A DNA stretch of 62,591 nucleotides, counting the filler, from Nitrospinae bacterium RIFCSPLOWO2_12_FULL_45_22 (GTDB lineage: Bacteria > 2-12-FULL-45-22): NCBI GenBank assembly GCA_001803565.1. It is 5 parts of 5 records of this genome, joined end to end, with 100 filler letters (N's around TTAATTAATTAA, not from the genome) between each part and the next. Parts side by side here need not be neighbours in the genome. Positions count along the whole stretch, not along the records: positions 16,435 to 32,265 come from MHDQ01000026.1; 4 more parts are not named here. One strand, given 5' to 3'. The notes under the pieces are model-generated. The model saw nothing but the letters and a program-made list of their open reading frames with translations, was not told the origin of the DNA and did no database searches. Position numbers and translations under genes: made by a program. Positions within the stretch are counted from its first letter, which is position 1. The number at the start of each line of letters is the position of its first letter. Positions 11,175-29,866 of this stretch are shown piece by piece.

Positions 11175-11352
11175 AGTGATTCTGGACACAGATGAACACA
11201 GATAATTTCGAGTTGTGTGTTAAACCCGTAACTCGCAACCCGTAACGAGTTACTGTAGGTATCTGTGAAAATCTGTGTCCCAACTTAAAGTGGTAATCGC
11301 AGGCTGTAGTCGCAGGCTTTAGCCTGCGCTAATTTAAAGAGAGGAGGAAAGA

Positions 11353-12348: not shown

Positions 12349-12447
12349 GAATACTTACCGCAGGGACACAGAGGCCGTGGAGAGAATGGACCTAAACCAG
12401 GGTACCCACAGCCTCCTCAGCGTCTCAGCGCCTCTGCGGTTAATATT

Positions 12448-13182
12448 ATGGAAAGATACTCACCCATGTTAATAGCAATATTTGGGGATATCCATGGGAA
12501 TATTGAGGCCCTCAGGGTGGCATATGAGGCGGCCATCACTCATAGAGTTGAAAAGATATATCACCTGGGCGACCTAGGTGGCTATGCACCATTCGTAAAT
12601 GAAGTGGTTGATTTCCTTATCGAGCATAAGATTGAGGGAATACAGGGTAATTATGATGAAGCGGTAGCTAATAACCGGGAACATTGTGGCTGCAAGTATG
12701 AGAACCCCTTCCAGGCAGAGATGGCCACCTTGTCTTTTGAGTGGACCAAGCAGCATGCTACCCAGAAGAGTAAGGACTATATGAAGGGTCTCCCTTTTGA
12801 TATTTCATTCTCCTGCCACAATCTAACCATAACCCTATTCCATGCCACCCCATTGAAAAACAATCTTTATTGGTACCAAGAAAGGCCGGATAAATTTTTC
12901 CGGCAGATGGCTATGTGGGCAGATGCCAAGGTAATGATTTATGGACATACTCATATCCCTTACAGGAAGGATATAGACAATAAGGTATTCATCAATGCTG
13001 GTAGTGTAGGGAAGCCAAAGGATGGGAATCCAGGGGCATGTGTGGCATTGGTTGATATTACTCCCGATGCCATAAGAACCGAATTATTAAGGCTGCCTTA
13101 TGATGTAGAAAAGATGGCGGGAGCCATAATTAAAAGCGGCTTACCAAAATATTTTGCCGAGAAGCTGCGCTCAGGAGAATGA
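12448..13182 (+). CDS. Metallophosphoesterase (calcineurin-like)
   Basis: GDIHGN, LGDL, GNYD, GHTH and NAGSVG motifs plus a CGC motif. Confidence 0.85.
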   Translation: MERYSPMLIAIFGDIHGNIEALRVAYEAAITHRVEKIYHLGDLGGYAPFVNEVVDFLIEHKIEGIQGNYDEAVANNREHCGCKYENPFQAEMATLSFEWTKQHATQKSKDYMKGLPFDISFSCHNLTITLFHATPLKNNLYWYQERPDKFFRQMAMWADAKVMIYGHTHIPYRKDIDNKVFINAGSVGKPKDGNPGACVALVDITPDAIRTELLRLPYDVEKMAGAIIKSGLPKYFAEKLRSGE

Positions 13183-13200
13183 GTCGAGAGGAGAGCGCCA

Positions 13201-13959
13201 ATGGATCAGAAAGAGGATATTCTGGAATTAAGACCTAACATCTTCCGCCTGCGGGGCACCAATCAGAGTAGCCATTCCTACGTGATAAAAGGAGATTATA
13301 AGAACCTGCTGATTGATTCCGGGGCAGATGAGAACTTTCAAAAGTTGGAAAGCCTCCTCCTAAAGGTGGGCCTCAAGGTAAAAGATATTGACATAATAAT
13401 AAATACCCATGAACATTTTGATCACATAGGGGCTAACCGCTATTTTCAGGACTATGCCCTCATCGCTTCCCATCGCTACTCGGCCAATAAGATAACCCTG
13501 GCAGACCGGGTCGTTACTCATTACCAGAGCCGGGATATGAATGAGTTACCCCTGAAGGTGCATTTATGCCTAAAAGACCGGTGTCGGATGGATCTGGGCA
13601 ATTATATCCTGGATGTAATCCATACCCCAGGCCATACCTCGGGCTCCATCTGTCTGTATGAATTCAGTCAGATGCTATTATTTACGGGTGATACTGTCTT
13701 TGCCGGCGGCACTTTATCCAGGATTGCCGAGTCAGGCAGTATTGGCGATTATATAAACTCCATCATTACTTTGAGAAACTTCAGGATTGCTGAGCTCTAC
13801 CCTGGCCATGGCCGTATTTCTTGTACACCAGACGAAGATATGGAGCAGGCCATAATCAATGCCCGCTCCTTCCTCAAAGATAAATGCCAACCGTCACCTA
13901 TCGGAATGGCCAGTCCATCTCTTGAATCGGAAGATAACGAAAATTTAATAAAATTGTAA
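13201..13959 (+). CDS. MBL-fold metallo-hydrolase
   Basis: THEHFDHIG, HTPGHT, FTGD and PGHG motifs. Confidence 0.88.
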   Translation: MDQKEDILELRPNIFRLRGTNQSSHSYVIKGDYKNLLIDSGADENFQKLESLLLKVGLKVKDIDIIINTHEHFDHIGANRYFQDYALIASHRYSANKITLADRVVTHYQSRDMNELPLKVHLCLKDRCRMDLGNYILDVIHTPGHTSGSICLYEFSQMLLFTGDTVFAGGTLSRIAESGSIGDYINSIITLRNFRIAELYPGHGRISCTPDEDMEQAIINARSFLKDKCQPSPIGMASPSLESEDNENLIKL

Positions 13960-13982
13960 CCATTCCTTAACCTGCCTGTAAC
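13934..13982 (+). promoter_or_regulatory. Pho-box-like 11-bp direct repeats upstream of the second regulator and pstC
   Basis: ATAAC/TTAAT/GTAAC/TTAAC/GTAAC at 13934, 13945, 13956, 13967 and 13978, followed by TATAAT. Confidence 0.65.
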
Positions 13983-14006
13983 ATTTCCAGGCTATAATGT
14001 GCGGCA

Positions 14007-14720
14007 ATGGATAAAGTATCACCAAAGTTCAAGCCTAAGACTGTCCTGGTAGTAGATGATGAGTTAGATGTAGTACGTTTAGTAGCTTATCATCTCGCCC
14101 AGGCCGGTTTTTCGGTCTATGAGGCATATGATGGCAAGAGCGGTATTGATATCTGCCTGAGTAATCCCATAGATCTATTAATCCTGGATATTATGCTCCC
14201 GCAATTGAGTGGCTGGGAAGTATGTCAACTCCTGAAGGCTCATCCCAAGACCTATCGGCTGCCTATAATTATCCTTTCCGCACTGGCTGAGGAAGAAGCC
14301 CGGATAAAGGGTTTCCAGTTGGGGGCCGATGACTATATGGTAAAGCCCTTTTCTCCCCGGGAGTTGGTTTGTCGGGTAAAGAACATCTTGCACCAGATGG
14401 AAGTCGAGAAAAAGGCTAGGTCGGTAATAAGGGTTGGAGAAATCACTATTGATTTCTCTAGACACCGGGTATTCAGGCAAGATAAGGAGATATTTTTGAG
14501 TATAAGAGAATTTAACCTCTTGAAACTCCTCGCTACTCACCAGGGATGTATCCTCAAGCGGGATGAGATCATAGAGGCCTTGTGGGATCAGGACCGCTTT
14601 ATCGAATATGGCAATATAGATGTCCATATATGTCACCTGAGGAAAAAGTTAGAACCTGATCCGCATAAACCCCGGCACATTGTTACCAAAAAAGGTGTAG
14701 GGTACCTACTAGCCAGCTAA
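14007..14720 (+). CDS. Second PhoB-like OmpR-family response regulator
   Basis: REC domain plus wHTH; KPFSPREL motif; lies between the MBL gene and pstC. Confidence 0.8.
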   Translation: MDKVSPKFKPKTVLVVDDELDVVRLVAYHLAQAGFSVYEAYDGKSGIDICLSNPIDLLILDIMLPQLSGWEVCQLLKAHPKTYRLPIIILSALAEEEARIKGFQLGADDYMVKPFSPRELVCRVKNILHQMEVEKKARSVIRVGEITIDFSRHRVFRQDKEIFLSIREFNLLKLLATHQGCILKRDEIIEALWDQDRFIEYGNIDVHICHLRKKLEPDPHKPRHIVTKKGVGYLLAS

Positions 14721-14728
14721 GATAGGGG

Positions 14729-16334
14729 GTGATAAATCTGTCTTCGGCCAGATGGAAAACTATAACGGGGGTTTTACCCTACCTGATTATCTCATTAGGG
14801 GGTATCACCATAATAGTGAGCATCCTGGCTATTCTGATATTTATTGCCTGGGAGGTTTATCCTTTGTGGAAAAAACCCAAGGCCGGCCTAGTCGCTAAGA
14901 TCAATCTTACCCAGGAACTAACCGGTATAAATTGGGATGATCTGCCATCACCCCTGGCTTTAGGGATCGAAGAATATCGCGAGATAGCTTTTGTGCCGGC
15001 GGTAGATGGGGCCATCAACTTCTTCTCACCTATTACGGGTAAGGTGATAGAGTCCGCCAGGGTGAAAGAGATAGAACCAGGAGATATTACCGCTTCTCGG
15101 GGGTCATTGGGCAGCAAAGGAATAATCATGGGCACTTCTACCGGTGAGGTAGTAGTAGGGGAGATAAATTTCTCTATCTCCTTTATCAGCGGGAAGCGCA
15201 CTATCAGACCAACTATTACGGTGAAAGGGCCTATTAAAGTTGATCAGGCGGGGCAACCTCTCTCGCTCGTTACTTTTAAGGGAGATGAAGAGCAAGGGGC
15301 TGCTGCCGCCCTAACCGCAGATGGCAGACTGGTTTTTTTTGCTTACCAGAAAGGCCCTCCTACCCTCCTCCTGGGCGAAGGGAAAAGAGAGGAGTTTCGA
15401 CACGATCTTACCCAGCAACTTCAGGGAGAGCAGGTGAGGGCCTTGGCCTTAGACCATTTCTTGGAAAATCTCTATATAGGTACCCAACATGGGCATATTT
15501 ATAATTGGGCTGTGAGGGATAAGAGGAATCTTTCTTTAGTGGACAAGTTGGATGCCACGGGTGACAGGAGAGCCCCAGTTACTGCCCTGGGGTTTTTGAT
15601 AGGTGAGCGGTCCCTCATGGTCGGTGATGCCGCCGGTAATGTGAGTACCTGGATGCAAATAGCGAATCAGACTTCTCCTGGAAAGACCATACTCAGAAGG
15701 GGCCATGTACTGAATCCCCATCCGGCAGCGGTTACTGCGGTGGCTGGTTCATCGCGGAATAAGGGTTTTGTATCGGCCGATGTCCAAGGAAACATCTTTA
15801 TCCACCATGCCACATCAGAACAAACTCTGCTGGAGCTTAAAGGGGAAGGAGAGATCATTAAAGCCCTGGCCTTTGCCCCCAAAGCCGATGGAGTAATAGC
15901 TCTGGACGGAAAAGGGGTATTTTACCACTGGGAGGTGGATAATCCCCACCCGGAAATAAACCTGAAAACTCTCTTTGGTAAGGTCTGGTATGAGGGCTAT
16001 CAAAAACCGGAATATGTATGGCAGTCTACCGGAGGAAGCGACGACTTTGAACCGAAAATCAGCCTTACACCCCTGGTTTATGGCACCTTTAAAGGTACCT
16101 TTTATGCCCTGATCTTTGCTATCCCATTAGCAGTACTGGGGGCCATTTATACCTCTCAGCTTATGCACCCTAATCTAAAAGGAATTGTTAAACCAAGCAT
16201 AGAAATTATGGCGGCTTTACCCAGTGTAGTGCTGGGTTTTTTGGCCGGTCTATGGATAGCTCCTCTACTGGAAAAGATATTGCCCGCGGTGCTAATTATG
16301 CCTTTGGTTATCATTAGTTTGATATTGGTTGCGG
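14729..16334 (+). CDS. pstC: Phosphate ABC permease PstC with periplasmic beta-propeller insert (truncated by gap)
   Basis: KVWYEGY...WQSTGGSDDFEPK and KPSIEIMAALPSVVLGF; WD40-like N-terminal region. Confidence 0.85.
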
Positions 16335-16434
16335 NNNNNNNNNNNNNNNNNNNNNNNNNNNNNNNNNNNNNNNNNNNNTTAATTAATTAANNNNNNNNNN
16401 NNNNNNNNNNNNNNNNNNNNNNNNNNNNNNNNNN
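16335..16434. other. Artificial contig linker
   Basis: N run containing TTAATTAATTAA (stops in all frames). Confidence 0.97.
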
Positions 16435-16553
16435 AGATGAAATAACCATTTACGTATAAGCCTTTGGTTTGGCAACGGTAGGCCGTTTCTGGTATACTCG
16501 TCCTTTTGTTGAAAGCTGATTGCTAATACCTGAACGCTTCCCGGGGGTAGGCT

Positions 16554-17348
16554 ATGAAGAGTCTAATCAAGGCTATTCTGGTAGGGTTAGCGCTGAGTAT
16601 AGGTGCGGGGATAGCCGGGGCCGACGATCGCTTCCAATTGCTATTTAGTGGAAGGGCAAAGCTTTTGGACCTGACTTATCCCATTAATAAGGGTAATGCC
16701 TATTGGCCCGGCAGCGCCTATTTTCCATTCACGCTTAAAAACATCGCTAATATTGATAAAGACGGCGTATACTCGAATAGCTTCTCTATGCCAGAACACC
16801 TGGGGACTCATATGGACGCCCCCAGTCATTTTGTTAAGGGCCAACTGTCTTTAGATCAGATCCCTTTGACTCAACTCTTTGGCCCTGCCGTAGTAGTAGA
16901 TGTCCGGCAAAAGGTGGATAAGAACCCGGATTATCAAATGAGTATCCAGGACCTGAAGGGATGGGAACAGGCCCATGGGCTCATACCCGATGGAGCCATC
17001 ATATTAATGTATACCGGCTGGGGGGAGCGGTGGTCTGATTTTAATAGCTATCGGAACCGAGATGCGCAGGGCAACTTGCATTTCCCGGGCTATTCGCCCG
17101 AAGTGGCTCAATTCCTGATAAAAGAAAAGAGTATCTATGGGATTGGTATAGACACTTTGAGTGTAGACTATGGCCTATCTAAAGATTTTAAAGTCCACCA
17201 CATATGCCATGGGGCAGGTAAATACCATCTAGAGAACGTGGCTAATCTGGACAAGATGCCTGCTAACGGGGCTTATCTGATATTGGCCCCGATCAAGATT
17301 GAAGGCGGTTCTGGAGGACCTACGAGAATCTATGCTGTATTACCCTGA
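16554..17348 (+). CDS. Cyclase/kynurenine formamidase family protein with signal peptide
   Basis: EHLGTHMDAPSHF, GIDTLSVD, HLENV and GGSGGPTR motifs. Confidence 0.88.
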   Translation: MKSLIKAILVGLALSIGAGIAGADDRFQLLFSGRAKLLDLTYPINKGNAYWPGSAYFPFTLKNIANIDKDGVYSNSFSMPEHLGTHMDAPSHFVKGQLSLDQIPLTQLFGPAVVVDVRQKVDKNPDYQMSIQDLKGWEQAHGLIPDGAIILMYTGWGERWSDFNSYRNRDAQGNLHFPGYSPEVAQFLIKEKSIYGIGIDTLSVDYGLSKDFKVHHICHGAGKYHLENVANLDKMPANGAYLILAPIKIEGGSGGPTRIYAVLP

Positions 17349-17478
17349 TTGTCCAGGAATTTCCTTTTGGACACAGATGAACGCAGATTTTTAGGACTAA
17401 GGGAAAATATTGAGTGGTGAAGAGTAAGGAGTAAACAGTTAACTCTGGATGGCTTACTGCTCACTCTTGACTTTAATT

Positions 17479-20133
17479 TTATCTGCCGTGCTTTACTCCA
17501 GCCTCTTCAACTGCGGCAATGATCTCTTTACACACTTTCTGTAATTCACGAGATATACGACCGATTACTCTCTTATCCTGGGTGTAATATTGAATGATAT
17601 ATTTGAAAGGCTCAAGGAAGTCAAACTCTTCCTTATACGGTGTCCTTGAGAGTTCATTGATGAACTCCTCTGCCTCTTTAAACCTCCTGAGTTTTAAAAT
17701 ATTTATTAAGAAGGTATAGAAAATAGAATGGATTTGTTTTAATATTTTAACCCTTGGAAGTGCTTCAAGTAGCTCATAGACAAGCCTCTTATAAGTCGTT
17801 TCTCTGTCTACCCTGAGCGAAAGCCAGGCCGCTGTAAGAAGGGTATCAATCATAGAGGGATAGTCAAGTATTGCTTTCTTCTTTATAATCTCCCAGGATG
17901 CAATGAACTGCTGGAGTGCCTCTTTAAGGTAATTTTCATTGTGCTTAAGTTCAGCCAACTCTAAGAGTGCAACTCCCCATTTAGAGAATGCCGAAAAATG
18001 ATCGGGGTCCAATTCAAGCACCTTTTTGCATTTCTCGATTACCTCCCGAAATAGTTTTTCATCTCTCTTCAGGGTTGCGAATTCTAATAATGAGTCTCCC
18101 CATTTGCAAAAGGCTTCATAAAAATCAGGTTTTAATTCCACTGCCATCTTGAATTTTTCAAAAGACTCCTGAAAGAGTCCCTCATCCTGCTTTAACTCGG
18201 CAAGTTCAGACAGTGCAATCCCCCAGCTATAGAAGCCTTCAGGATCATCAGGCTCTAATTCAACTACCTTTTCATATTTTTCAAAGGCTTCTCTGAAGAG
18301 TCCTTCATCCCGCTTTAATTTAGCAAGGTCTGAGAGTGCAATCCCCCAGTTGTTAAAAGCTCTAAAATAATCAGGTTTTAATTCCACTGCCCTTTTGTAT
18401 TTTTCAAAGGCTTCCTGGAAGAGCCTCTCATCCTGCTTTAACTCAGCAAGGCGTAAAAGTGCGTTTCCCCAGTTATGGAAGGCTTCAGGAAAATCGGGCT
18501 TTAATTCCACTGCCCTTTTGTATTTTTCAAAGGCTTCTTGGAAGAGTCCCTCATCCTGCTTCAATCTGGCAAGGTCTGAGAGTGCAAGCCCCCAGTTATA
18601 GAAGGCCCCATAATCTTTAGGCTCGATTTCTGTAATCCTTGAGAATTGTATTACTGAATCAGCAAATGCACCTTCTTCAGCTAAGGCTATTCCATAGAGG
18701 TTGAGTATATAAAGGCTATCCGGCTTCTTTCTTAAATATCTTTTAGATAGTTCAATTACCCGACGGAATTCTCGCTTCTCATATACCTCCTGAATCTCTC
18801 TTTCTGCTTTAATAATTCTTATTCTTTTCTTCAGCTTTAATGCAGCCTCGGTATATTCGAGCAATCTTGCATATTGTGGACGAGTATCCGCAGTATGAAT
18901 GAGCATTTTGCGATATTCCCTCAATTGAGCCTCGGAGTACCAAAGACTGATAAACCGAATAAACATCTCAACCAATCCTCGGTCAGTGGTGGATAAATGC
19001 CAATAGCGATAGAGGTGCTCTTCTAAGTCATAGAGCGCGCCTATACCTTTCTCTTTTCTAACAAACCTTACAAATCCATTCTTCTCCAGTTCATTTAACT
19101 GGGCGGTGACGGTATTCGTAGGAATATGAAGCTTTTTTGATATCTGACCTGGAGTAAGAAGGAAGGGGCTTTCGGCAAAGGCGATGAGGATCTTTTCCTG
19201 CTGAGGGGAGAGATTCTCGGTCCTGGACTGAAAGTATGGGGTCAACTCCTCCAGGAGATGATAGAACAACCTCTCTATCTCCTCCAATCTCTCATACTCT
19301 AAGGCTATCTCATAAAGCATGAGGATAAGCCTGGGATTGCCACCAGTAAGGGTGGAAAGAACCATGAGTAGAGCCCGGTTTCTCTTTATTGTCTCTAAGA
19401 AATCCTGTCTCCCCTCAAGCTCGGCTCTCTTCAACCAGAGACCCTGACAGTCATTATCTGAGAAATCTTCTAACTCCTCTATCCTAAAGAAGTTGTATAA
19501 GGCATGCTTGTGATCAATCAGTTGTTTAAAAACTGAGGTAGAGGTGCCGATGAGTAATAGGACATTATCATTCATTAGAAGGCTTCGTAACCAGCGCTCC
19601 TTGTAAGGATCTTTTATTTTTATGACCCTCTTTCCAAAGACCCTATCTAAGTTTTCTACTAAAAGGAGAAGCTTTCTTTTTCTTTTTATGGCCTGCCCGA
19701 TTAAAAAAGCCCGTATCTTCTCTACTGCGTCGGTTTCTTTCTCACCTCTGATATCTTCAAGAATCTTATCCCATCCCTCTTCCTCTCCCTGAGCCAACTT
19801 GATTATCTTTACCATAAAATCCAGTAGAGAGATAATTCCATACCCCTGCTCAGGAAACAAGATAGGTAGCCACTTCTTTCTAAACCCTTCCTCTTCCTTT
19901 ATTCGATGATAGATGAAGGATATGAGATGGCTTTTGCCAATACCTCTTGGTCCTACCAATAACCAATGTTGATGGGTTTTTTTCTCTGCCTGTTCCTTTA
20001 TGGAATTAAAGAGCAGATTTAATAATTCCTCCCTTCCTACGGTGGTCTCTTCAAGTTCCTTTAGGGAGAAATGGATCGGGTTATAGTGATAAATCACTCT
20101 TTTAGCCTCCTCTTGAATTGATATCGTTTCCAA
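17479..20133 (-). CDS. P-loop NTPase (STAND/AAA-like) with winged HTH and TPR repeats
   Basis: Walker A GPRGIGKS, Walker B LLLLVENLD, GGNPR, HTH-like PGQISKKLHIPTNTVTAQLNELEKNGFV, six 41-aa repeats. Confidence 0.8.
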   Translation of the reverse strand: METISIQEEAKRVIYHYNPIHFSLKELEETTVGREELLNLLFNSIKEQAEKKTHQHWLLVGPRGIGKSHLISFIYHRIKEEEGFRKKWLPILFPEQGYGIISLLDFMVKIIKLAQGEEEGWDKILEDIRGEKETDAVEKIRAFLIGQAIKRKRKLLLLVENLDRVFGKRVIKIKDPYKERWLRSLLMNDNVLLLIGTSTSVFKQLIDHKHALYNFFRIEELEDFSDNDCQGLWLKRAELEGRQDFLETIKRNRALLMVLSTLTGGNPRLILMLYEIALEYERLEEIERLFYHLLEELTPYFQSRTENLSPQQEKILIAFAESPFLLTPGQISKKLHIPTNTVTAQLNELEKNGFVRFVRKEKGIGALYDLEEHLYRYWHLSTTDRGLVEMFIRFISLWYSEAQLREYRKMLIHTADTRPQYARLLEYTEAALKLKKRIRIIKAEREIQEVYEKREFRRVIELSKRYLRKKPDSLYILNLYGIALAEEGAFADSVIQFSRITEIEPKDYGAFYNWGLALSDLARLKQDEGLFQEAFEKYKRAVELKPDFPEAFHNWGNALLRLAELKQDERLFQEAFEKYKRAVELKPDYFRAFNNWGIALSDLAKLKRDEGLFREAFEKYEKVVELEPDDPEGFYSWGIALSELAELKQDEGLFQESFEKFKMAVELKPDFYEAFCKWGDSLLEFATLKRDEKLFREVIEKCKKVLELDPDHFSAFSKWGVALLELAELKHNENYLKEALQQFIASWEIIKKKAILDYPSMIDTLLTAAWLSLRVDRETTYKRLVYELLEALPRVKILKQIHSIFYTFLINILKLRRFKEAEEFINELSRTPYKEEFDFLEPFKYIIQYYTQDKRVIGRISRELQKVCKEIIAAVEEAGVKHGR
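17905..18615 (-). repeat. Six 123-bp (41-aa) intragenic TPR-like tandem repeats
   Basis: For example ATTCCACTGCCCTTTTGTATTTTTCAAAGGCTTC recurs at 18381 and 18504. Confidence 0.9.
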
Positions 20134-21551
20134 TACTCCCTGAGGAGAGGGGATGAGAAACGATAGGCATTATCTTTCTTTTCAAGATAAACGTCATACT
20201 CTAAATACCCGAGTAGTATTTCAATATCTTTGGCATCTCTAAACTTTGAAAGGTAGATGTGTTGTAACTCTGCTATCCTGACCCCTTGAGGGGATTTAGA
20301 GAGTTCATCGAGTAAGACCTCAGCCTTCCTTGTTCGCTCCCCTCCATAGTGCCGCAAGATATGATGATAGAGATCATCCAGATATCGTCTACAGTTTGGG
20401 CCTAACAGTTGATTCTCATAGATATGAGGGATATCTTTTACAGTAATAGACTTATATTTTCGGTAATATGAGATAATCTGACCAGTGAAGATCTGGAGAA
20501 AATAGGGGTAAGCCGGATGGATAGATTTCACTATCTCTTCTATTATTTCTTTTTCTAAGTAAACTCCTTGTCCATAGAGGAGACCTTCAACAAGTAATTC
20601 AGCCTCTTCTTCCTTAAAGGGTGAGAGTTTGAGGCGATCAAAGTCAGCAAAATATCTCTGATTTATATTTTTATCCTCAATATATACCTCTATATCTATA
20701 GAGCCGGTCAGGATAAACCGTAAGTATTTTTCCCCCTCTCTCTTTCTAGCAAACCACTGAAGAAATTCCTCAATCTCCTTCCTTTTGAGTTTTTCAAAAA
20801 AATTGTCAAGCATATATGAAAACTCATCCATCAAGAACAATAATCGGCTCCTTCTGATCTCTTTAAAGGTCTCCTCAGCTTTACTTTGCCAGTTTATATT
20901 GGTCTTTCTGATTTCTTCTTCAATCTTATTCCTTTCTACCTCGTCCTTTGCCCTGACGGCTGCCGTACATCTGGCTGCAAAATCCAGAGGAGAGTAAACT
21001 TTCTCAAGGTCTATATGAATACAGCGATAGTCCTCTTTCGGATTATCACGAATAACATACAACAGACTCGTCTTTCCAAACCTTCGAGGAGCAGTTATGA
21101 GAAGGTTTTTTTCTTGCAGCCTCTGCCAGACCTCTTCAATAGTAGCCTCCCGATTGAAAAAATCATTTCCTGTTACCACCCCACCTGCATAATTTGATGG
21201 GAAAAAATTGCCTCGAGACAGTAGAAGATTCTTTATCCCGATAAGAAATAGCTTATGTTTAAATTCCTGCTTACTTCTATCCCAAAAGATCCATATAGGG
21301 AAAGTCTCTATAGTGAACCCGTGAGTCTGTGGATGTTTAAAAGGAATCTCTTGGAAATTGGCTACGTAATATTCTTTAATAAAGCCTTCTTCTCTGATAC
21401 TATCATTAATCTTGGAAGTCTCTTGAGGTAGACATTCTACAGCATCACTATCCTCTACTCCTCTAACCCAGAGGAATACAAATCCTTTAGGCTTCTTTTC
21501 CTTATCATAGATATCTATAAGGTGTCCTGTTCCACTGAACTCTTTGTCCAT
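20094..21551 (-). CDS. P-loop NTPase (archaeal-ATPase/STAND-like) with unrecognised N-terminal domain
   Basis: Walker A APRRFGKTS, Walker B LLFLMDEF, RFILTGS, HPAYPYFLQ, C-terminal YRFSSPLLREYW; overlaps the next gene by 40 bp. Confidence 0.8.
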   Translation of the reverse strand: MDKEFSGTGHLIDIYDKEKKPKGFVFLWVRGVEDSDAVECLPQETSKINDSIREEGFIKEYYVANFQEIPFKHPQTHGFTIETFPIWIFWDRSKQEFKHKLFLIGIKNLLLSRGNFFPSNYAGGVVTGNDFFNREATIEEVWQRLQEKNLLITAPRRFGKTSLLYVIRDNPKEDYRCIHIDLEKVYSPLDFAARCTAAVRAKDEVERNKIEEEIRKTNINWQSKAEETFKEIRRSRLLFLMDEFSYMLDNFFEKLKRKEIEEFLQWFARKREGEKYLRFILTGSIDIEVYIEDKNINQRYFADFDRLKLSPFKEEEAELLVEGLLYGQGVYLEKEIIEEIVKSIHPAYPYFLQIFTGQIISYYRKYKSITVKDIPHIYENQLLGPNCRRYLDDLYHHILRHYGGERTRKAEVLLDELSKSPQGVRIAELQHIYLSKFRDAKDIEILLGYLEYDVYLEKKDNAYRFSSPLLREYWKRYQFKRRLKE

Positions 21552-22244
21552 TTATTTTCCTCTCCTTTTGTCTATTTCTTTTTTCAAACTGTCAAAGAAT
21601 TCATCTGCAATATATAATAGTTCGCTCATGGCAAAGAATTTAATTTCTTCATCCAATTGGACTGACTTAGATCGTTTATATCTAAGACCATGCTCTTTCT
21701 TATCCCAACCATGCTGAAGCAGAGTCATAATCTGCACCTCAAATTTAATAGGAGATATTTCAAAGAAGAGATGGACTGCACGATGCCCCTTTGCTCTTTC
21801 TTTAGGGATAATATTGATATAGTCTCGTGGTTGTTCCAATAATTTGAAAGGAACACCGTCCTCTGTCTTCTCTAGCAGAAAGTCTTTTATTTTAGTCACC
21901 TCTGACAGGTAATTACATAGGATACGAAATCTGAGAATATCCTTCATCTCCCGATGGAAGTTCTGAAAACTATATTTTTTAGGCTCTTCCCCGATTTTTT
22001 TTACTATACTCTCCCAGCTTTTTATCTGTGTTGTCTCATGAGTATCCAACTCAGGATAGAGTTCCGTATCTAATTGATTTTGTACTCTATATTCATTCAG
22101 CATCCTGTTAAGTTCAGCAAACACAATTGAACACAATCCTTTATGTGGTTGGGTTTTAGCCTCAATATCCCGCTGACATTTTTCAAGAGATAAATAACTA
22201 CTACCTTTAATAAATTCTTCTAATCTTTTATCAATGTATGCCAT
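21552..22244 (-). CDS. RelA/SpoT nucleotidyltransferase-domain protein (small alarmone synthetase-like, divergent)
   Basis: IKSWESIVKK, MKDILRFRILC, DYI...GHRAVHL and FEVQIMTLLQHGWDKKEHGLRYK correspond to the Syn1-Syn4 motifs. Confidence 0.8.
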   Translation of the reverse strand: MAYIDKRLEEFIKGSSYLSLEKCQRDIEAKTQPHKGLCSIVFAELNRMLNEYRVQNQLDTELYPELDTHETTQIKSWESIVKKIGEEPKKYSFQNFHREMKDILRFRILCNYLSEVTKIKDFLLEKTEDGVPFKLLEQPRDYINIIPKERAKGHRAVHLFFEISPIKFEVQIMTLLQHGWDKKEHGLRYKRSKSVQLDEEIKFFAMSELLYIADEFFDSLKKEIDKRRGK

Positions 22245-22264
22245 TTCTAGCCCTTATAAATGCA

Positions 22265-22328
22265 ATAGTTTTATTGCGCAATAAAATTATTGCGCAATAA
22301 AACTATCACAAAATATATATCATGTCAA
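22265..22328 (-). promoter_or_regulatory. Sigma70 promoter of the island overlapped by a double palindromic operator
   Basis: Minus strand TTGACA-N17-TAGTTT (22328-22300); perfect 20-bp inverted repeat at 22265-22306. Confidence 0.7.
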
Positions 22329-22697
22329 TATATTCAGTGTCAGCTTTCTCTTGTAAATCTTTTGTAAAATGGTTTGTCTTTAGGCTTAAACTATGATATA
22401 AAGGATATAATAGTTGTAAAGAACCCAGGTAAGGCAGAAGCACATAGATGATCCCCTTCTTGGTGAAATAGACGATGAAGAAACCGATTAAGGTTATTCT
22501 GGTACTATAATATCTGTGTAACCATCTTAGGGTGGGTAACCTAATTTTTCTTTGGGCCTTTGTGGTTCCTTTTAGTTTCGTACTGTTTTGCGCTTCTTTG
22601 GGGCTATATTTTAGAAGCTTTTAGCGGGCTAAACTATTAGAATTCCAGTTATCTGCAGAAATCTGTGTCCTAAATATACATCAAAGGGAGGACAGAC

Positions 22698-23303
22698 ATG
22701 GAGCTAGAAGTTATCCTCTATTCTGATTTTATCTGACCCTTCTGCTATATTGGGGAGCAGAACCTGGATCGGCTCCGCACGGAGTATAATATAAAGGTGG
22801 ACTGGAAGGGTTTAGAGATCCATCCTGAAGTGCCCAAGCCAGGTTTAAGGCTCTCCCAACTCCTTGGTCCAGGGAGGATAGAGACGCTTTGGGCTAATGT
22901 AGACTATTTAGCCGCCAGCGTGGGCCTGAAGCTCAAGCGGCCTCAGCATCTACCTAATTCCCACTGGGCTTTAGAAGCGGCAGAATTTGCTAAAGAAAAA
23001 GGACGGCTGAAGGAGTTTCATGACCGGGTATTTAAGGCCTACTTTGAGGAAGGCGAAGATATCGGGTCGCTAGAAGCCCTGGCTGCTATTGGCCAGCGGT
23101 GTGGTCTGGACCCGGCCGAGTTAAAAGAATCCCTCCAGGCCGGACATTATTACCCTATCATCGAGCAATACCGACAAGAGGCCAAAGAGAGACAGGTTAC
23201 CGGGGTACCTACTTACATCATAGGAAGTTACCCCCTTGTCGGGGCACAACCTTATGAAATCATGAAACGGGCCACTGAAAAAGCCCTGGAGCAAGCCAGC
23301 TAA
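22698..23303 (+). CDS. DsbA/FrnE family oxidoreductase, selenoprotein (UPFC)
   Basis: GGAGG RBS, ATG 22698, MELEVILYSDFI-TGA-PFCYIG in frame with the annotated 22797 ORF; C-terminal VTGVPTYIIG...GAQP. Confidence 0.82.
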
Positions 23304-23322
23304 AGGAAGAGGCTGAAGAGCG

Positions 23323-23853
23323 TTGACCAGACTAAAGCTCGACCTCCATACCCACTGCTTCGAGGCATTGAAGGCCAGACCCAGTAAAGATTCTGTCAAA
23401 GAAATCCTGGAAGCTATAAAAGCGAAAGGCCTGGATGGGATAGCTATCACTGAGCATGAGAATAAATATTATGGATTTAAAGCCCGAGAAATCCAGCAGG
23501 CTTATTTCGGTAATGAGGTGTTACTTATACCGGGCCAGGAAGTGATAACCCCGGAAGCCTCCTTCATAGAACTTTATCTACCTGACAATTCAACTTTTTA
23601 TACCTTCCGCTTTATTGCCCATCCCTACTATCAGTTTTCCGTCAAGGACTATACCGATATTCACGGTATTGAGATAGAGAATGATATGCATAATTACCAT
23701 ATTGATAAGGAACTGGTTGAATCGGTAGCCCAGGATCACAATTTACTACTCTTACGCAATAGTGATGCCCACTATTTAGAGGATATAGGCAATTTTTATA
23801 ATGAACTGGCCTGGGAAGACTTTTTTATCAAGAACAATAAATTTATAGCATAG
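23323..23853 (+). CDS. PHP domain protein
   Basis: DLHTH, GIAITEH, IAHPY and NSDAH motifs. Confidence 0.85.
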
Positions 23854-24076
23854 GAATTTTTGTTTTGGACACAGATGAACCCAGAAAATTCTAAACCCTA
23901 ATATCTAAATCCTAAACAAATTCAAAACTCAAATGAGCTAAATTCAAAAAACAGTTTTGAACATTTGGACTTTGAATTTGGATATTGTTTAGAATTTAGG
24001 GTTTAATTTATTACTATCCGCATTTGTCTGTGAGAATCTGTGTCCTAATAAATCTTAACCATAAGGGAGGTGGACT

Positions 24077-25252
24077 ATGCTGGCATTAGAAGGGCTTGTG
24101 GTGCTGGACTTAGCGAGGCGTTACCCGGGGGCCTATTCGGCTATGTTTTTTGCTGATTTTGGTGCGGAGGTGATCAAAGTTGATCCGCCCGTGGGAGGTT
24201 TACCTATTCAACCAGAAAATGTTAGTGAGGAAAAATTTGCTGCCTATTATGCCTCGGATCGGAACAAAAAAAGCATTATCCTTAACCTTAAAAGTGATGA
24301 AGGTCGAGAGGCATTTCACCGATTAGTAAAAAAGGCCGATGTGCTGATAGAGGGCTTCAGCCCCGGGGTAATGAAGCGGCTGAAGACTGATTATGACACG
24401 CTTAAAACTATTAATCCCCGGCTCATATATTGTTCCCTGACCGGATATGGTCATGATGGACCGTATGCCCATATGCCCGGGCATGATATGAATTATTCTG
24501 CTATCGGAGGGGCCTTGAGCCTCGTTGGTGAGCGGGGTGGCCGTCCCTATCTGGTGAGTAATCTACTGGCAGATATGGCTGGTGCTGGCTTGCATAGCGT
24601 CATTGGTATTCTGATCGCCCTAATGGCCCGGGAAAGAACTGGCAGAGGGCAATTTGTAGACATATCATATGTTGATGGTGTGATCTCGCTGCTCGCTATG
24701 GATGCCTCTTTCTATCTGGCCACAGGTAAAGTACCCCGGCGGGGTGAGACCTTTACGACCGGTGGAGTACCCTGGGGAAATATCTACCGCTGCAAAGACG
24801 GAGAATATATTACCTTAGGTTGTGCGGAACCGCATTTCTGGGTAAATCTCTGCCGGGCATTAGGCCGGGAAGACCTCATACCCTACCATACTCCACCCGA
24901 AGAAAAGCGAGAGGAAGTGATTTCCGCCCTAGCAGAGATATTTCTTACCCGCACCAGAAAAGAGTGGTGCGAGTTCTTTAAAGACAAAGATACCTGCTTT
25001 GGCCCGGTCTATTATCTGAATGAGACCTTTTCTGATCCCCAGGTACTGCACCGGCAGATGGTAGTTGAATTAGAACACCCTAACGTAGGCAAAGTAAAAC
25101 AAATTGGTATCCCCATAAAACTGTCTGAGACACCAGGCCAGATAAGGAGTTTAGGGGTTCCAACCGGTACTCATACGGGTGAGATTCTAACCAGTCTGGG
25201 ATATACGAAGGAAGAGATCCAAAAATTGCGCCAGACAAAAGTTATTGGCTGA
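24077..25252 (+). CDS. CoA transferase, CaiB/BaiF family
   Basis: DFGAEVIKV, RNKKSI, GHDMNY and GRGQFVDIS motifs. Confidence 0.92.
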   Translation: MLALEGLVVLDLARRYPGAYSAMFFADFGAEVIKVDPPVGGLPIQPENVSEEKFAAYYASDRNKKSIILNLKSDEGREAFHRLVKKADVLIEGFSPGVMKRLKTDYDTLKTINPRLIYCSLTGYGHDGPYAHMPGHDMNYSAIGGALSLVGERGGRPYLVSNLLADMAGAGLHSVIGILIALMARERTGRGQFVDISYVDGVISLLAMDASFYLATGKVPRRGETFTTGGVPWGNIYRCKDGEYITLGCAEPHFWVNLCRALGREDLIPYHTPPEEKREEVISALAEIFLTRTRKEWCEFFKDKDTCFGPVYYLNETFSDPQVLHRQMVVELEHPNVGKVKQIGIPIKLSETPGQIRSLGVPTGTHTGEILTSLGYTKEEIQKLRQTKVIG

Positions 25253-25259
25253 TAAAATT

Positions 25260-25399
25260 TAAATTATATTTGGGACACAGATTTCCACAGATACACACAG
25301 ATAACAGTAAGGAGTGAGCAGTTACTGCTTAGTGCTCACTTATTTTTATCCTGTTAATCTGCGTTCATCTGTGTCCAAAAGGAAATTCCCAGACAATTA
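25260..25399. repeat. Intact GGACACAGAT...ATCTGTGTCC hairpin repeat; other copies at about 11183-11280 and 23867-24044
   Basis: Complementary 9/10-nt-periodic arms GGACACAGATTTCCACAGAT and ATCTGCGTTCATCTGTGTCC. Confidence 0.8.
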
Positions 25400-25693
25400 A
25401 GTTAATTTTGTTACCACAAAAACACAAAGGGCACTAAGAATTTCAGTAATAATCCTTACTTCCCTTAGTGCTTTCTGTGACTTTGCGGTTCATACAACTG
25501 GAAAATAGGGAATGGTCATTTACTATTCACCATTTATCATTTCCGGCAGAACTTCTTAGACGGGATTAACAGGATTTCCAAATTTTTCGAATGGTAAGCG
25601 TTGAGCATGGTATTTACCGCGGTTATTTGGAATTTATCCTGTAAATCTTGTGAGATGCTGTAATTGATAACCGTTTAGAGAGGAGGAGAGGTT

Positions 25694-26491
25694 ATGGGAT
25701 TGTTAGATGGGAAAGTTGCTGTAATAACCGGTGCTGGTAGGGGTATTGGAGCGGCTGTGGCTAAGTTATTTGCTAGCCAGGGGGCTAGTGTAGTAGTTTC
25801 TGACTTAGATGAAGGGCCCGCCCAGGCTGTAGTAGAAGAGATAAAGAAGGCCGGTGGTAAAGCTATAGCCTGTTGTGGTAATGTTATGGAAGAGGCTACT
25901 AACCAGGCCTTAATCAAGGCCGCAGTAGACAGCTTTAAGGGACTACATATCCTGGTACCCTGTGCTGGCTTTTGTAATGATTCTGTCATTCAGAAGATGA
26001 GCCTGGAGGTTTTCCGGCAGATGGTTGCGATCCATATGGAGGCACCCTGGATGCTCTGTAGGGCTGCTTACCCGGTGTTTAAAGAAGCGAGTGCTGATGG
26101 GGTAATCCGCAAGGTCATTTTTATCTCCTCTGAGGCAGGCAGCCGGGGCAATGCGGGCCAGACTAACTATGCCTCAGCTAAGAGTGGGGTTATTGGCCTA
26201 ATGCGGACCGTGGCAAAAGAATGGCTACGCATCCGCGTCAATTCCAATTGCATAGCCTTTGGCTTTGTTGATACCCGGCTGACCCAGGCCGATTGTGGTA
26301 GTACTATCATGGGCGCCAAGATTGGATTACCAGGCAACTTGCGCCAGATGGCCGAGCAAGGGGTCACGATGCGAGGTGGTAGGCTCCTTACGCCAGAAGA
26401 AGGGGCTGGGAGCATATTCTGTCTGGCCATACCCCAGGCCGATGGGATCAATGGCCAGTTAGTCGAGGTAGACAGCGGGGTCGGTATATAG
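25694..26491 (+). CDS. SDR family oxidoreductase (3-oxoacyl reductase-like)
   Basis: TGAGRGIG, NAGQTNYASAK (YxxxK). Confidence 0.9.
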   Translation: MGLLDGKVAVITGAGRGIGAAVAKLFASQGASVVVSDLDEGPAQAVVEEIKKAGGKAIACCGNVMEEATNQALIKAAVDSFKGLHILVPCAGFCNDSVIQKMSLEVFRQMVAIHMEAPWMLCRAAYPVFKEASADGVIRKVIFISSEAGSRGNAGQTNYASAKSGVIGLMRTVAKEWLRIRVNSNCIAFGFVDTRLTQADCGSTIMGAKIGLPGNLRQMAEQGVTMRGGRLLTPEEGAGSIFCLAIPQADGINGQLVEVDSGVGI

Positions 26492-26519
26492 AACTCACCC
26501 TAAAAGAAAGCGAGAAAGG

Positions 26520-27041
26520 ATGCAGAAATTTAATAAAAAGGGAGATGAGGGGTATACTGACCTTCTCTTTGGCCGCCGGGAGCTTAAATGTCATCCCCGG
26601 ATAGAGGCTTATGGCGAGATAGATGAGGCCATATCGCTTCTGGGGTTAGCGCGGGCCCTGGTTAAAGATGAGTGGTCTAAAGAAATACTCCTTGGAATAC
26701 AGCATGACTTATTTCTGGTCAGCACTGAGTTAGCCACTTTCCCGGAGGCCTATCATAGGTTAAAAAAGACGGTCTCTGAAGATATGGCCCAGCGGCTAGA
26801 GGAGCTTATAAACCAACTAGAGGCCAGGGTAGAATTACCACATAGTTTCATTATTCCAGGCGATTCTGTAGTATCAGCCATACTGGACATGGGCCGGGCT
26901 ATGGTTCGGCGAATAGAACGGCAGGTAGTGAGATTGAGAGAAGAAAGGGCTATCTCTAATGGTGCTATCCTGAGCTACCTGAATCGCCTGGCCGATCTCA
27001 TCTATACCTTAGCCCGCTACCAGGAAACCCTGGCCGGGTAA
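26520..27041 (+). CDS. Cob(I)alamin adenosyltransferase, PduO type
   Basis: KGDEGYT, IEAYGEIDE, FIIPG and YLNRLADL motifs. Confidence 0.88.
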   Translation: MQKFNKKGDEGYTDLLFGRRELKCHPRIEAYGEIDEAISLLGLARALVKDEWSKEILLGIQHDLFLVSTELATFPEAYHRLKKTVSEDMAQRLEELINQLEARVELPHSFIIPGDSVVSAILDMGRAMVRRIERQVVRLREERAISNGAILSYLNRLADLIYTLARYQETLAG

Positions 27042-27093
27042 ATCTAATAAAGATGACAGGTCTGGTCAACGGTTACAGAGAGATAATATTGTA

Positions 27094-28119
27094 ATGCTTG
27101 GTCATAGACATTGCAGCTCTAATATTCAACCCCATGACCAGAACTACCAGCTTAGCCGGCATAGCCATATCACTGGGGTCACAGACCCGGTCATTTTTAC
27201 CACCCAGCAAGGTATTCAGGCGATCAAGTGGTCCTTTATTGGCTTACTGGGCACCGCCTTTCTTCAGATCATTGTTGTTTGGCTCTCAGGAAGTGTGGCC
27301 CTTCTGGCTGATACGATCCACAACTTCAGCGATGCCGCTACCGCCATCCCGCTATGGATAGCTTTCAGGCTTACCTGTATAAAACCCACCAGGCGGTTTA
27401 CTTACGGCTATGGCCGGGTAGAAGACTTAGCAGGGGTGGCCATCGTATTTATCATATTGCTCAGCGCCGTTATCGCTGGCTATCAGTCGGTTGCCCGACT
27501 TTACCACCCCCAGGCAGTCGGCTATCTTGGCGCTGTGATCGCAGCATCACTGGTGGGCTTCCTGGGTAATGAGGCGGTGGCCATGTTTCGCATAAGAGTA
27601 GGCAAAGATATCGGTAGCGCCGCTTTGGTGGCAGATGGCTATCATGCCCGGGTAGATGGTTTAACCAGTTTATCAGTATTGTTTGGAGCAGTAGGAGTGG
27701 GGCTGGGCTTCCCACTGGCAGACCCTATTGTCGGTCTCTTTATTACTGCGGTAATCCTGCGCATTGTCTGGGGATCTGCCAAGGCCGTTTTTATCCGCTT
27801 GCTGGAGGGAGTAGACCCAGGTATGATAGATGAAATTAAGCATGCAGCCAATCACGTACCCGGGGTGAAGGAAATCACAGAAGTGCGGGTGAGATGGTTG
27901 GGTCATCGGCTCCATGCGGAAGTAAATATAGCCGTTAATCCGGAACTAACCATTACCCAGGGGCATGGAATTGCCCTGGAGGTACGCCACCAGCTCTTGC
28001 ATCATTTGAAATATCTTTCCCAGGCCACGGTGCATATTGACCCATTGGACGCATCAGGTGAGGCATATCATAGCATCTCCGGACATCGGCACGACGATCT
28101 GCCTGTTCATAAGCATTAA
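27094..28119 (+). CDS. Cation diffusion facilitator transporter
   Basis: SGSVALLADTIHNFSD and ADGYHARVD motifs; His-rich termini. Confidence 0.9.
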   Translation: MLGHRHCSSNIQPHDQNYQLSRHSHITGVTDPVIFTTQQGIQAIKWSFIGLLGTAFLQIIVVWLSGSVALLADTIHNFSDAATAIPLWIAFRLTCIKPTRRFTYGYGRVEDLAGVAIVFIILLSAVIAGYQSVARLYHPQAVGYLGAVIAASLVGFLGNEAVAMFRIRVGKDIGSAALVADGYHARVDGLTSLSVLFGAVGVGLGFPLADPIVGLFITAVILRIVWGSAKAVFIRLLEGVDPGMIDEIKHAANHVPGVKEITEVRVRWLGHRLHAEVNIAVNPELTITQGHGIALEVRHQLLHHLKYLSQATVHIDPLDASGEAYHSISGHRHDDLPVHKH

Positions 28120-28139
28120 GGGGAGGGAGTTGAGGTAAG

Positions 28140-29816: not shown

Positions 29817-29866
29817 TTGCAGTAGCACAATATCCTGCTTAAATGCGGAGGCGCAGGGAACACCAG

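Follow-up and report, generated by a model that had tools for sequence, protein, structure and literature searches.

What might a small RelA/SpoT-type enzyme and two related ATPases, encoded back to back in one island of a bacterial genome, do together? The question is raised by three minus-strand genes at positions 17479 to 22244 of a stretch of 62,591 nucleotides from Nitrospinae bacterium RIFCSPLOWO2_12_FULL_45_22 (GCA_001803565.1), which we call the window and along which all positions are counted; it joins five parts of five records, and the genes lie in the part taken from MHDQ01000026.1 (16435 to 32265). Gene 1 encodes the RelA/SpoT-type protein (Rel, P0001), gene 2 the first ATPase (NTPase-1, P0002) and gene 3 the second (NTPase-2, P0003). 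We establish the domain identities and catalytic residues of these proteins, the order and coupling of their genes, the co-occurrence of Rel with an N-terminal domain of NTPase-1 (the N-domain), an operator, a variable arm on NTPase-2 and a patchy, horizontal acquisition of the whole. The explanation we favour, which we regard as evenly poised between right and wrong, is that the cassette is a self-contained, autoregulated and horizontally moving three-protein conflict module of the toxin-antitoxin or abortive-infection kind, in which the NTPases gate an enzyme resembling a toxic small alarmone synthetase (toxSAS).

A conserved order of three genes

Gene 1 (21552 to 22244, minus strand, 230 amino acids) and gene 2 (20094 to 21551, minus strand, 485 amino acids) both start with ATG, and the stop codon of the former (21552-21554) abuts the start codon of the latter (21549-21551), a gap of 0 bp. 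The original prediction had described three coupled minus-strand genes with this gap followed by a 40-bp overlap. The three genes and the gap stand; the overlap arises only if gene 3 is taken as the longest open reading frame (ORF; 17479 to 20133, minus strand, 884 amino acids from a TTG at 20133). A GTG at 20097-20095 lies 8 nt past a perfect AGGAGG (20111-20106), forms a GTGA overlap with the TGA of gene 2 and matches the N-terminus of the family, about 7 residues ahead of an invariant Y-N-P. Stop/start overlaps like this GTGA are also found at the gene 2/gene 3 junction of other loci. Because of the GTG with its AGGAGG, the N-terminal length of relatives and the overlaps elsewhere, gene 3 more likely spans 17479 to 20097 (minus strand, 872 amino acids); the third gene thus probably starts at GTG 20097, in which case the 40-bp overlap is an effect of choosing the longest ORF. 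The three genes are tightly, translationally coupled.

To follow this arrangement in other organisms, we scanned one genome per species (185,579 species genomes) with a pattern drawn from the Rel alignment, which gave 22 genome loci. A further 80 metagenome loci were seeded by the Walker A motif of NTPase-1 alone, and the forms of the cassette among them were mapped by hidden Markov model (HMM); loci of both sets carry L numbers. An NTPase-1 homologue directly followed Rel in all 22 genome loci, and NTPase-2 was third in 16 of the 22; in the remaining six, the sequence runs out too soon at three loci and a metabolic gene, HpaB, takes the third place at three. Across both sets, NTPase-2 was third in 23 of the 26 Rel-positive loci with at least 400 nt of downstream sequence. 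A two-gene form, Rel plus NTPase-1 with its N-domain and then HpaB-type hydroxylase genes, was found in three related delta-proteobacterial/Thermodesulfobacteriota genomes (L012, L014 and L017). Most loci have stop/start overlaps or abutments at both gene junctions. Because the order recurs in 22 of 22 loci that were found with Rel alone, the three-gene arrangement is far above chance. Conserved synteny had been put forward as a check on the original prediction, and it was borne out across phyla (22/22 for Rel with NTPase-1, 16/22 for NTPase-2).

The genome loci span at least 10 named lineages, including an Aenigmatarchaeota archaeon. They were found in Desantisbacteria, Bacteroidota (Marinifilum), Desulfobacterales and other Thermodesulfobacteriota, and Lentisphaeria, as well as in Acidobacteriota (Thermoanaerobaculia, Bryobacteraceae, Solibacteraceae) and Myxococcota (Hyalangium, Archangium, Myxococcus, Polyangiaceae). 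Within one myxobacterial order, the Rel family was present in 5 of 201 sampled genomes (E ≤ 1e-30). Flanking genes differ among loci, near-identical genome pairs excepted, and clustering of all neighbours yielded no fourth conserved gene beyond such pairs. The cassette is patchy in its distribution and horizontally acquired.

Two forms of the module were found in the metagenome set. One is Rel, NTPase-1 with the N-domain, and NTPase-2; in the other, which is commoner, NTPase-1 begins about 5 residues before its ATPase core, NTPase-2 follows and there is no Rel. The Rel-less module (L024-L069, e.g. L025, L037, L051-L056 and L063) consists of an NTPase-1 core of about 400 amino acids and then an NTPase-2 with an AAA_16 domain and a winged helix-turn-helix (wHTH), with or without tetratricopeptide repeats (TPR) or Sel1 repeats. 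No other conserved neighbour accompanies these pairs; a PIF1 helicase domain was found in one neighbour of the Rel-less and odd NTPase-1-like loci that we sampled. We then tallied Rel against the N-domain in those loci, 66 from the two sets together, whose upstream sequence measured 1100 nt or more: both were present in 29, neither in 36, Rel only in 1 and the domain only in 0. In the independent metagenome subset (45 loci), the corresponding numbers were 8, 36, 1 and 0. The single Rel-only exception (L036) has an N-terminal extension that the HMM did not recognise. The ATPase pair appears to be older than its link to Rel.

Enzyme, ATPases, repeat arm and operator

The domain assignments made at the outset, namely a RelA/SpoT synthetase and two P-loop NTPases, one with a wHTH and TPRs, were upheld. 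Gene 1 matches Pfam RelA_SpoT (PF04607) at 4.4e-13 and 49.9 bits against a cut-off of 27, over profile positions 3-112 of 113. Its closest solved relatives are RelP/YwaC (6fgk, 1.4e-11) and RelQ/YjbM; a profile of the Rel family (29 members) reached RelQ at 1e-15, RelP at 6e-15 and CapRel (7ztb) at 2e-5 in the PDB. The NCBIfam YjbM equivalog model scored 46.1 bits against a cut-off of 320, and the PADLOC model PDC-S33 matched partially, over positions 69-174 of 349, that is, the RelA/SpoT core (E 1.5e-9). At 230 amino acids, the protein has no extra C-terminal domain and no fused pZFD antitoxin domain. Gene 1 is predicted to be a small RelA/SpoT-type pyrophosphokinase that resembles small alarmone synthetases (SAS).

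Eleven residues are invariant in 29 of 29 Rel members: K75, K83, D102, R105, R107, E169, Q171, T174, W180, D181 and H185. These include the Mg-coordinating Asp of Syn2 (D102) and the catalytic Glu-x-Gln of Syn4 (E169/Q171), which align to RelP and RelQ; the Mg-binding role of this Asp is described for FaRel2 D90 in a passage of 10.1101/2021.04.30.441581. The acceptor side is different. Position 154, where SAS enzymes have the acceptor-stacking Tyr of GY(R/K)S, is His in 13 members, Glu in 13, Tyr in 2 and Asn in 1, and position 73, the Arg of the Syn1 R-x-K, is never Arg in the 29 members; the same passage of 10.1101/2021.04.30.441581 calls the Tyr highly conserved among SAS. We read this as a putative enzyme with a working pyrophosphate donor site and a remodelled acceptor site. 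The original prediction had Rel make an alarmone or modify tRNA, and either may be so.

NTPase-1 is made up of two parts. The core (20094 to 21176, minus strand, residues 126-485 and the stop) would be an AAA+/STAND-like ATPase (STAND: ATPases of signal transduction that have numerous domains) with a C-terminal winged helix. Pfam matches of gene 2 are to AAA_14, nSTAND1, AAA_35 and ATPase_2; nSTAND1 scored 25.2 bits against a cut-off of 27.1 and ATPase_2 (PF01637) 22 bits against 33.2, while the L073 relative reached 45.7 bits for the latter. Invariant in the family are Walker A (P155-R-R-x-G-K-x-S162), Walker B (D242-E243), G283-S284 and P349, and 2fna and 2qen, two archaeal Walker ATPases, were reached by the family profile at about 1e-10. 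An AlphaFold2 (AF2) model of the core, with a predicted local distance difference test score (pLDDT) of 89.4, ends in helix-helix-helix-strand-strand (405-465). Foldseek placed 2qen (1.5e-11) and 2fna at the top of its matches to this model, followed by Orc1/Cdc6, NB-ARC, CED-4 and MalT; a DNA-bound Orc1/Cdc6 heterodimer (2qby) is among the matches. Profile and model together identify gene 2 as a probable archaeal-type AAA+/STAND-like ATPase.

The N-domain (21177 to 21551, minus strand, residues 1-125) is the Rel-linked alpha/beta part of NTPase-1 and a candidate Rel-binding or neutralising adaptor. A Pfam scan of it gave no match, and a look-up in the ESM Atlas gave nothing usable (best feature score 0.84). 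Its AF2 model (pLDDT 89.1) has the order beta-beta-alpha-beta-alpha-beta-alpha. When a profile of the domain was searched against 1.84 billion representatives, 69 were matched (E ≤ 1e-3), mostly proteins of 450-515 amino acids with the domain at the N-terminus; it is restricted to this family. Foldseek returned no PDB match for it at E ≤ 1e-3; ranks 2, 4 and 5 were chains of the antitoxin ATfaRel2. An alignment with VIA-align against 48,161 chains ranked ATfaRel2 first (Z 4.9, root-mean-square deviation [rmsd] 3.0, 74/74 residues), and on a second look the Z scores of the three ATfaRel2 chains were 5.1, 4.8 and 4.7, with the entry ranked after them at 3.4; overall, the alignments had an rmsd of 3.0-3.3 over 74-79 residues. 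This likeness, together with the linkage to Rel, is a lead for an antitoxin-like action of the predicted domain, not for membership of a family. The original prediction had suggested that the NTPases may restrain the effector. The presence of the N-domain only where Rel is present is in keeping with it, and the match of the modelled structure to ATfaRel2 is a weak one.

NTPase-2 has an AAA_16 domain (residues 32-164), an HTH_24/IclR/MarR-type helix-turn-helix (310-361) and matches to TPR families (457-750), among them TPR-S at 36.2 bits against a Pfam cut-off of 27.6. The L001 relative passes the Pfam ATPase_2 cut-off at 49.8 bits. Invariants of the family are a Walker A of the form GxRGxGK(S/T)H and a GG(N/L)PR motif, found in 16 of 16 members. 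In place of a standard Walker B there is hhhh(E/D)-N-x-D, with an Asn (N161) in all 16 members at the position where AAA+ enzymes usually have the catalytic acid. Such a sequence would fit an ATPase that binds nucleotide and hydrolyses it poorly.

Within its TPR region, gene 3 contains five tandem repeat units (17962 to 18630, minus strand) of 123 nt (41 amino acids) each that are 61-78% identical. This C-terminal region is the most divergent part of the NTPase-2 relatives, and its length varies by hundreds of residues. Between L003 and L004, the arm is 68% identical against 87-93% for other parts of the protein, with a length difference of 272 amino acids; between L019 and L020, the values are 27% and 51-68%. 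NTPase-2 of L016 has almost no repeat arm. As judged from these alignments, the TPR arm is the fastest-evolving part of NTPase-2.

Two perfect 14-nt palindromes, TTATTGCGCAATAA, lie upstream of the cassette at 22271-22284 and 22287-22300, 16 nt from start to start and 27-56 nt ahead of the ATG of gene 1; we consider them a candidate operator. Just upstream of them is a perfect TTGACA, a -35-like hexamer (22323 to 22328, minus strand) of a putative promoter, with a weak -10 candidate, TAGTTT, at 22300-22305. A consensus promoter scan did not list the TTGACA at 22323-22328 and listed another site, at 22420-22393. Arrays of TTGTTG-N2-CAACAA were found upstream in other loci, often right after TTGACA. 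Across the 717,460 nt of loci L001-L102, the motif TTRTTGNNCAAYAA (at most 1 mismatch) occurs at 37 sites, of which 33, distributed over 25 of 101 loci, fall between -129 and +17 of an operon start; a doubled site with the 16-nt spacing of the window is present in seven loci. Both Rel operons and nine Rel-less pairs are preceded by the motif, and the protein that binds it is therefore to be sought in the ATPase pair: one of the two winged-helix ATPases should bind this operator, and the operon is probably autorepressed.

Island edges and neighbouring genes

The cassette sits in an island that is AT-richer than its surroundings, as had been proposed. In 500-nt bins from 17500 to 22499, the GC content is 0.32-0.45 with a mean of 0.39, and the means on either side are 0.47 (10000-17499) and 0.49 (22500-29999). 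No transposase was found inside the island, and no credible small antitoxin ORF, just ORFs of 25-45 amino acids without support. The sole match of Rfam in the island, a sub-threshold microRNA model on the palindrome, was taken as chance, and a search of the window for tRNA genes found none.

Both edges of the island carry a 20-nt repeat, GGACACAGAT-N4-GCAGAT, with the left copy at 17369 to 17388 (plus strand) and an inverted right copy at 22651 to 22670 (minus strand). The window has 9 copies against 0.34 expected, at 11184-11280, 17369-17388, 22651-22670, 23867-24045, 25273-25376 and 52351-52370. The copies mostly form close inverted pairs, three in number and 77-160 nt apart, in intergenic spaces between co-directional genes. 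The pair at 17369 (+) and 22651 (-) is 5.26 kb apart and encloses exactly the three genes. Contigs from four public metagenome runs span the island continuously with its flanks, and their depth spikes at the 20-nt repeats, reaching about 10 and about 70 times that of neighbouring bins at two copies, so the element is high-copy. We also considered an island-less allele; contig joints across the island have sides of just 22-35 letters at high-copy repeats and were set aside as repeat artefacts. The simplest reading of the sequence is that the cassette was inserted into the 20-nt repeat element.

Some further observations concern the surroundings of the island. A 36-nt direct repeat, 78% identical, is found at 16548-16583 and 22469-22504. 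The left copy is the start of a cyclase-family ORF (MKSLIKAILV...) and the right copy an orphan 'MKKPIKVILV' fragment in the upstream spacer of the island, possibly the remnant of a displaced gene start. A run of N at about 16335-16434 interrupts the end of the ORF at 14729-16390, the translation of which ends in X's. On the other side, a DsbA/FrnE-like gene adjoins the island (22698-23303, plus strand), with ATG 22698 and not GTG 22797 as its apparent start. It has an in-frame TGA at 22734-22736, and the read-through protein matches Pfam DSBA over residues 5-192 at 1e-33. In the alignment with FrnE (5cp1), the TGA falls on the first Cys of CPWC, which would give U-P-F-C, and the protein is a candidate selenoprotein. 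A search for a selenocysteine insertion sequence (SECIS) found a downstream hairpin that folds no better than shuffled sequences (z -0.46).

Competing readings and relation to known systems

As an NTPase-gated conflict module, the cassette would work in the following way. Rel would be the effector and move pyrophosphate from ATP to an acceptor, the binding of which probably departs from the canonical GDP/GTP mode; this acceptor might be an adenine nucleotide, the 3' end of a tRNA or another substrate. At rest, Rel may be kept inactive by the N-domain of NTPase-1, perhaps acting as a structured toxSAS antitoxin. NTPase-1, with its canonical Walker B (DE), and NTPase-2, probably a nucleotide-bound switch, would assemble into a hetero-complex resembling Orc1/Cdc6 or STAND proteins. 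A trigger, which could be an invader protein or a cue of stress, might be captured by the hypervariable TPR arm of NTPase-2, and a nucleotide-dependent rearrangement would then free or activate Rel and arrest growth. The ATPase pair may also repress its own operon by binding, via a winged helix, to the tandem palindromes that overlie the promoter. In this scheme, we infer the toxicity of Rel, its binding by the N-domain, the trigger, the acceptor, the operator-binding winged helix and any role against phages. A more specific version, tentative and in our view somewhat doubtful as a whole, is a three-protein switch like that of NOD-like receptors (NLR). Here, a self-repressing, Orc1/Cdc6-like STAND heterodimer would hold a toxSAS-like Rel through a grafted antitoxin-like domain until capture by the TPRs frees it to act on a target other than GDP/GTP, and Rel and its adaptor would have been added once to an effector-less sensor-regulator pair.

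A number of results weigh against a conflict module of this kind. By profile comparison, Rel is nearer in sequence to housekeeping RelQ and RelP than to CapRel, and the family profile matched no FaRel2, Tas1 or long RelA/SpoT homologue at E ≤ 1. Isoelectric points of Rel scatter from 5.4 to 9.9, without a consistent basic surface that would point to tRNA. For the N-domain, the next unrelated chains in the 48,161-chain search had Z scores of 4.6-4.0, tied with ATfaRel2; by the guidance of the tool, the Z scores of the modelled domain against ATfaRel2 fall short of what would show a shared fold. A profile of the N-domain against PDB sequences gave 0 matches at E ≤ 10, and its alignments show no conservation of the YXXY motif that ATfaRel2 uses according to a section of PMC11782079. 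The Rel-less pairs contained no recognisable effector domain, as NTPase-2 of the ten that we looked at had an ATPase, a wHTH and TPR, Sel1 or no repeats, and for this reason the logic of sensor to effector does not account for the ancestral pair. Swapping of effectors was not seen either, with six odd NTPase-1-like ORFs showing ATPase, wHTH and TPR/Sel1 domains only.

Genomic context adds to these points. Enrichment in defence islands had been proposed as a check, and we found no such signal; the tallies are raw counts on crudely called ORFs. The 90 neighbour ORFs of the 22 genome loci are mostly metabolic, transport or housekeeping genes, and PADLOC families among them were matched by single ORFs only; some matches, for instance the myxobacterial ones to PD-T4-6 kinase models, may be of a generic kind. 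The 99 metagenome neighbour ORFs are likewise mostly housekeeping, with GmrSD_N found twice and N6_Mtase once, so that the defence-like matches in both sets are isolated. Profile searches of 2.9 million viral contigs found no relative of Rel or NTPase-1. On plasmids, tblastn with P0002 gave 7 distant matches, and these lack the N-domain, as all of them start at residue 113 or later. They include a pair on a plasmid of Segatella copri, with 'ATP-binding protein' as its sole annotation and WYL, DUF262 and insertion sequence elements nearby, and a pair on a Clostridium plasmid among hypothetical genes (both from the L103/L104 set).

Several of these results would suit physiological signalling, the foremost alternative but one we consider unlikely, in which MalT/AfsR-like STAND regulators sense an endogenous metabolite or stress and control their own promoter together with a (p)ppGpp-type synthetase. 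It would account for the housekeeping RelQ/RelP as closest relatives of Rel, the housekeeping genes nearby, the absence of any phage link found and an ATPase pair with winged helices and a promoter-overlapping operator that occurs alone without an effector, as a regulator would. A signalling role is harder to square with the sporadic spread of the cassette (5 of 201 genomes in one order and, within the reach of the pattern scan, 22 loci in 185,579 species genomes), flanking genes that differ among loci, a window copy that is an AT-rich insert and a hypervariable repeat arm. The acceptor Tyr and Syn1 Arg of (p)ppGpp synthetases are lost, and a dedicated N-domain co-inherited with Rel, along with translational coupling, suggests stoichiometric restraint. 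The layout, with an operator over the promoter and tight gene coupling, also resembles that of toxin-antitoxin (TA) operons, and the cassette could be a selfish addiction module acting by post-segregational killing, with Rel as the toxin and the ATPase pair as a large autoregulating antitoxin whose TPR arm serves stability or partner binding. We think this improbable, even with the hint of an antitoxin-like fold in the N-domain, a horizontal spread without defence neighbours and distant Rel-less pairs on plasmids. For an antitoxin alone, two large ATPases and a diversifying repeat arm would be a high price, there is nothing for the Rel-less pair to neutralise, and the plasmid collection yielded no Rel-linked form, its 7 matches lacking the N-domain.

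Rel could also be a nucleotide-binding or nucleotide-modifying accessory to the ATPase pair, the real output of which would be Orc1/Cdc6-like DNA binding at TTGTTG-N2-CAACAA, perhaps on foreign or own DNA. The pair does appear ancestral and self-sufficient, with the same operator in the absence of Rel, the fold of NTPase-1 has its nearest matches in archaeal Walker ATPases and in Orc1/Cdc6, a DNA-bound heterodimer among them, and the acceptor site of Rel is atypical. We nevertheless hold this reading to be very improbable, because Mg-binding and catalytic residues that are invariant in 29 of 29 members argue for a working transferase, and because a motif nearly confined to the module's own promoter (33 of 37 sites in 717 kb) fits autoregulation and not genome-wide action.

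If the conflict module is what it seems, it would bear on how RelA/SpoT-type toxins are controlled. What pZFD domains do in sensing is named in the discussion of PMC11782079 as a challenge still to be met. In the cassette, nature may have connected a presumed neutralising domain both to a nucleotide switch and to a separate, fast-evolving sensor; sensing, switching and neutralising, being placed on separate parts, would therefore be genetically separable. To our knowledge, toxSAS enzymes have so far been found with small or fused antitoxins. The analysis also brings to light that a module of two ATPases is widespread and has a candidate operator of its own, and the atypical acceptor site suggests a substrate possibly unlike those of known RelA/SpoT enzymes. 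Should the NLR-like switch be true, the Rel-less ATPase pair would be an unrecognised family of effector-less sensor-regulators.

The original prediction had not recognised the architecture as a named system, and our searches agree. Neither the operator nor the Rel-less ATPase pair featured in that prediction. PADLOC gave the partial PDC-S33 match on gene 1 only, with nothing significant for P0002 or P0003 and no Avs or NLR model at E ≤ 0.1; NCBIfam gave no match of the cassette to a named system. Literature searches found no published description of the architecture, which supplementary tables might nonetheless list. The theme of a STAND-type switch with a RelA/SpoT enzyme is already in print. 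What appears to be undescribed, in that our searches did not find it, is the combination of an operator with a small stand-alone Rel whose acceptor site is altered, an N-domain specific to Rel and two ATPases that are both archaeal-type but differ from each other.

The closest comparison is with toxSAS modules (FaRel2:ATfaRel2 and the fused CapRel-SJ46), in which a small RelA/SpoT-fold pyrophosphokinase is likewise found in a tight operon with a presumed restrainer. The profile of Rel reaches CapRel 7ztb at 2e-5, the best, if weak, structural match of the N-domain is ATfaRel2, and the cassette has an operator in its promoter region. Such an operator is typical of type II TA operons. The toxSAS TA modules are well studied, as the portions of PMC7229694 and PMC11782079 that we cite attest; in the latter, structured antitoxin domains are described to block the ATP donor site, with sensing coupled to release. 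The cassette differs in having no small antitoxin gene. Its candidate neutralising domain is instead fused to a 360-aa AAA+/STAND-like ATPase, with a second, wHTH-TPR ATPase besides, and this domain has no conserved YXXY; in its Rel, the acceptor Tyr is mostly His or Glu and the sequence is nearer to RelQ/RelP. Compared with RelQ (YjbM) and RelP (YwaC) themselves, its best relatives by sequence (1e-15 and 6e-15), the cassette enzyme is of the same size class and keeps the Syn2 Asp and the Syn4 Glu-x-Gln. It differs from them in the loss of the Syn1 Arg (29/29), in having the Tyr of GY(R/K)S in 2 of 29 members and in being sporadic, horizontally spread and always linked to an ATPase, and the YjbM model gives it 46 bits against 320.

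In STAND proteins, a P-loop NTPase is followed by a helical module that contains a GxP motif and by a winged helix, with sensor repeats last. NTPase-2 has all of these features (Walker A, hhhh(E/D)NxD, GG(N/L)PR in 16/16, wHTH and TPR), and NTPase-1 has Walker A and B, the invariant P349, a C-terminal winged helix and fold matches to NB-ARC, CED-4 and MalT. The cassette is thus like the STAND/NLR immune NTPases with RelA/SpoT effectors in its switch ATPase, GxP-type motif, winged helix, TPRs, here of the TPR-S sensor repeat family, and RelA/SpoT output. RelA_SpoT domains fused to fungal NLRs (RelA_SpoT-NACHT) are described in the part of PMC4986451 cited here, and alarmone synthetases are named as effector domains of bNACHT proteins in the supplementary discussion of 10.1101/2022.07.19.500537. 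The cassette may be a split prokaryotic counterpart to the fungal RelA_SpoT-NLR proteins. The likeness to Avs drawn in the original prediction holds for the architecture and stops at the effector, which in Avs and bNACHT systems is a domain of a single polypeptide and here is a separate protein. The cassette also has two different ATPases where STAND/NLR systems have one; their fold is nearest to PF01637 and Orc1-Cdc6, not NACHT or NB-ARC, no PADLOC Avs or NLR model matches, and there is a candidate operator-based layer of autoregulation.

The vWA-MoxR ternary conflict systems, as presented in sections of PMC7159879, resemble the cassette in being three-component, NTPase-centred and laterally transferred, with variable sensors. 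The same sections mention a RelA nucleotidyltransferase domain as a rare effector of these systems and take variability and a patchy distribution as the marks by which conflict systems are recognised. No vWA or MoxR is among the Pfam matches of the cassette, the ATPases of which are of another class. For NTPase-1, the best profile and fold matches are the archaeal Walker ATPases 2qen and 2fna (ATPase_2) and Orc1/Cdc6, all with an ATPase and a C-terminal winged helix, and two paralogous subunits encoded next to inverted repeats recall the Orc1/Cdc6 heterodimers on origin repeats named in the title of 2qby. In the cassette, by contrast, the repeats lie over its own promoter, the genes are sporadic bacterial island genes, NTPase-2 has TPRs and one form of the module has a RelA/SpoT partner.

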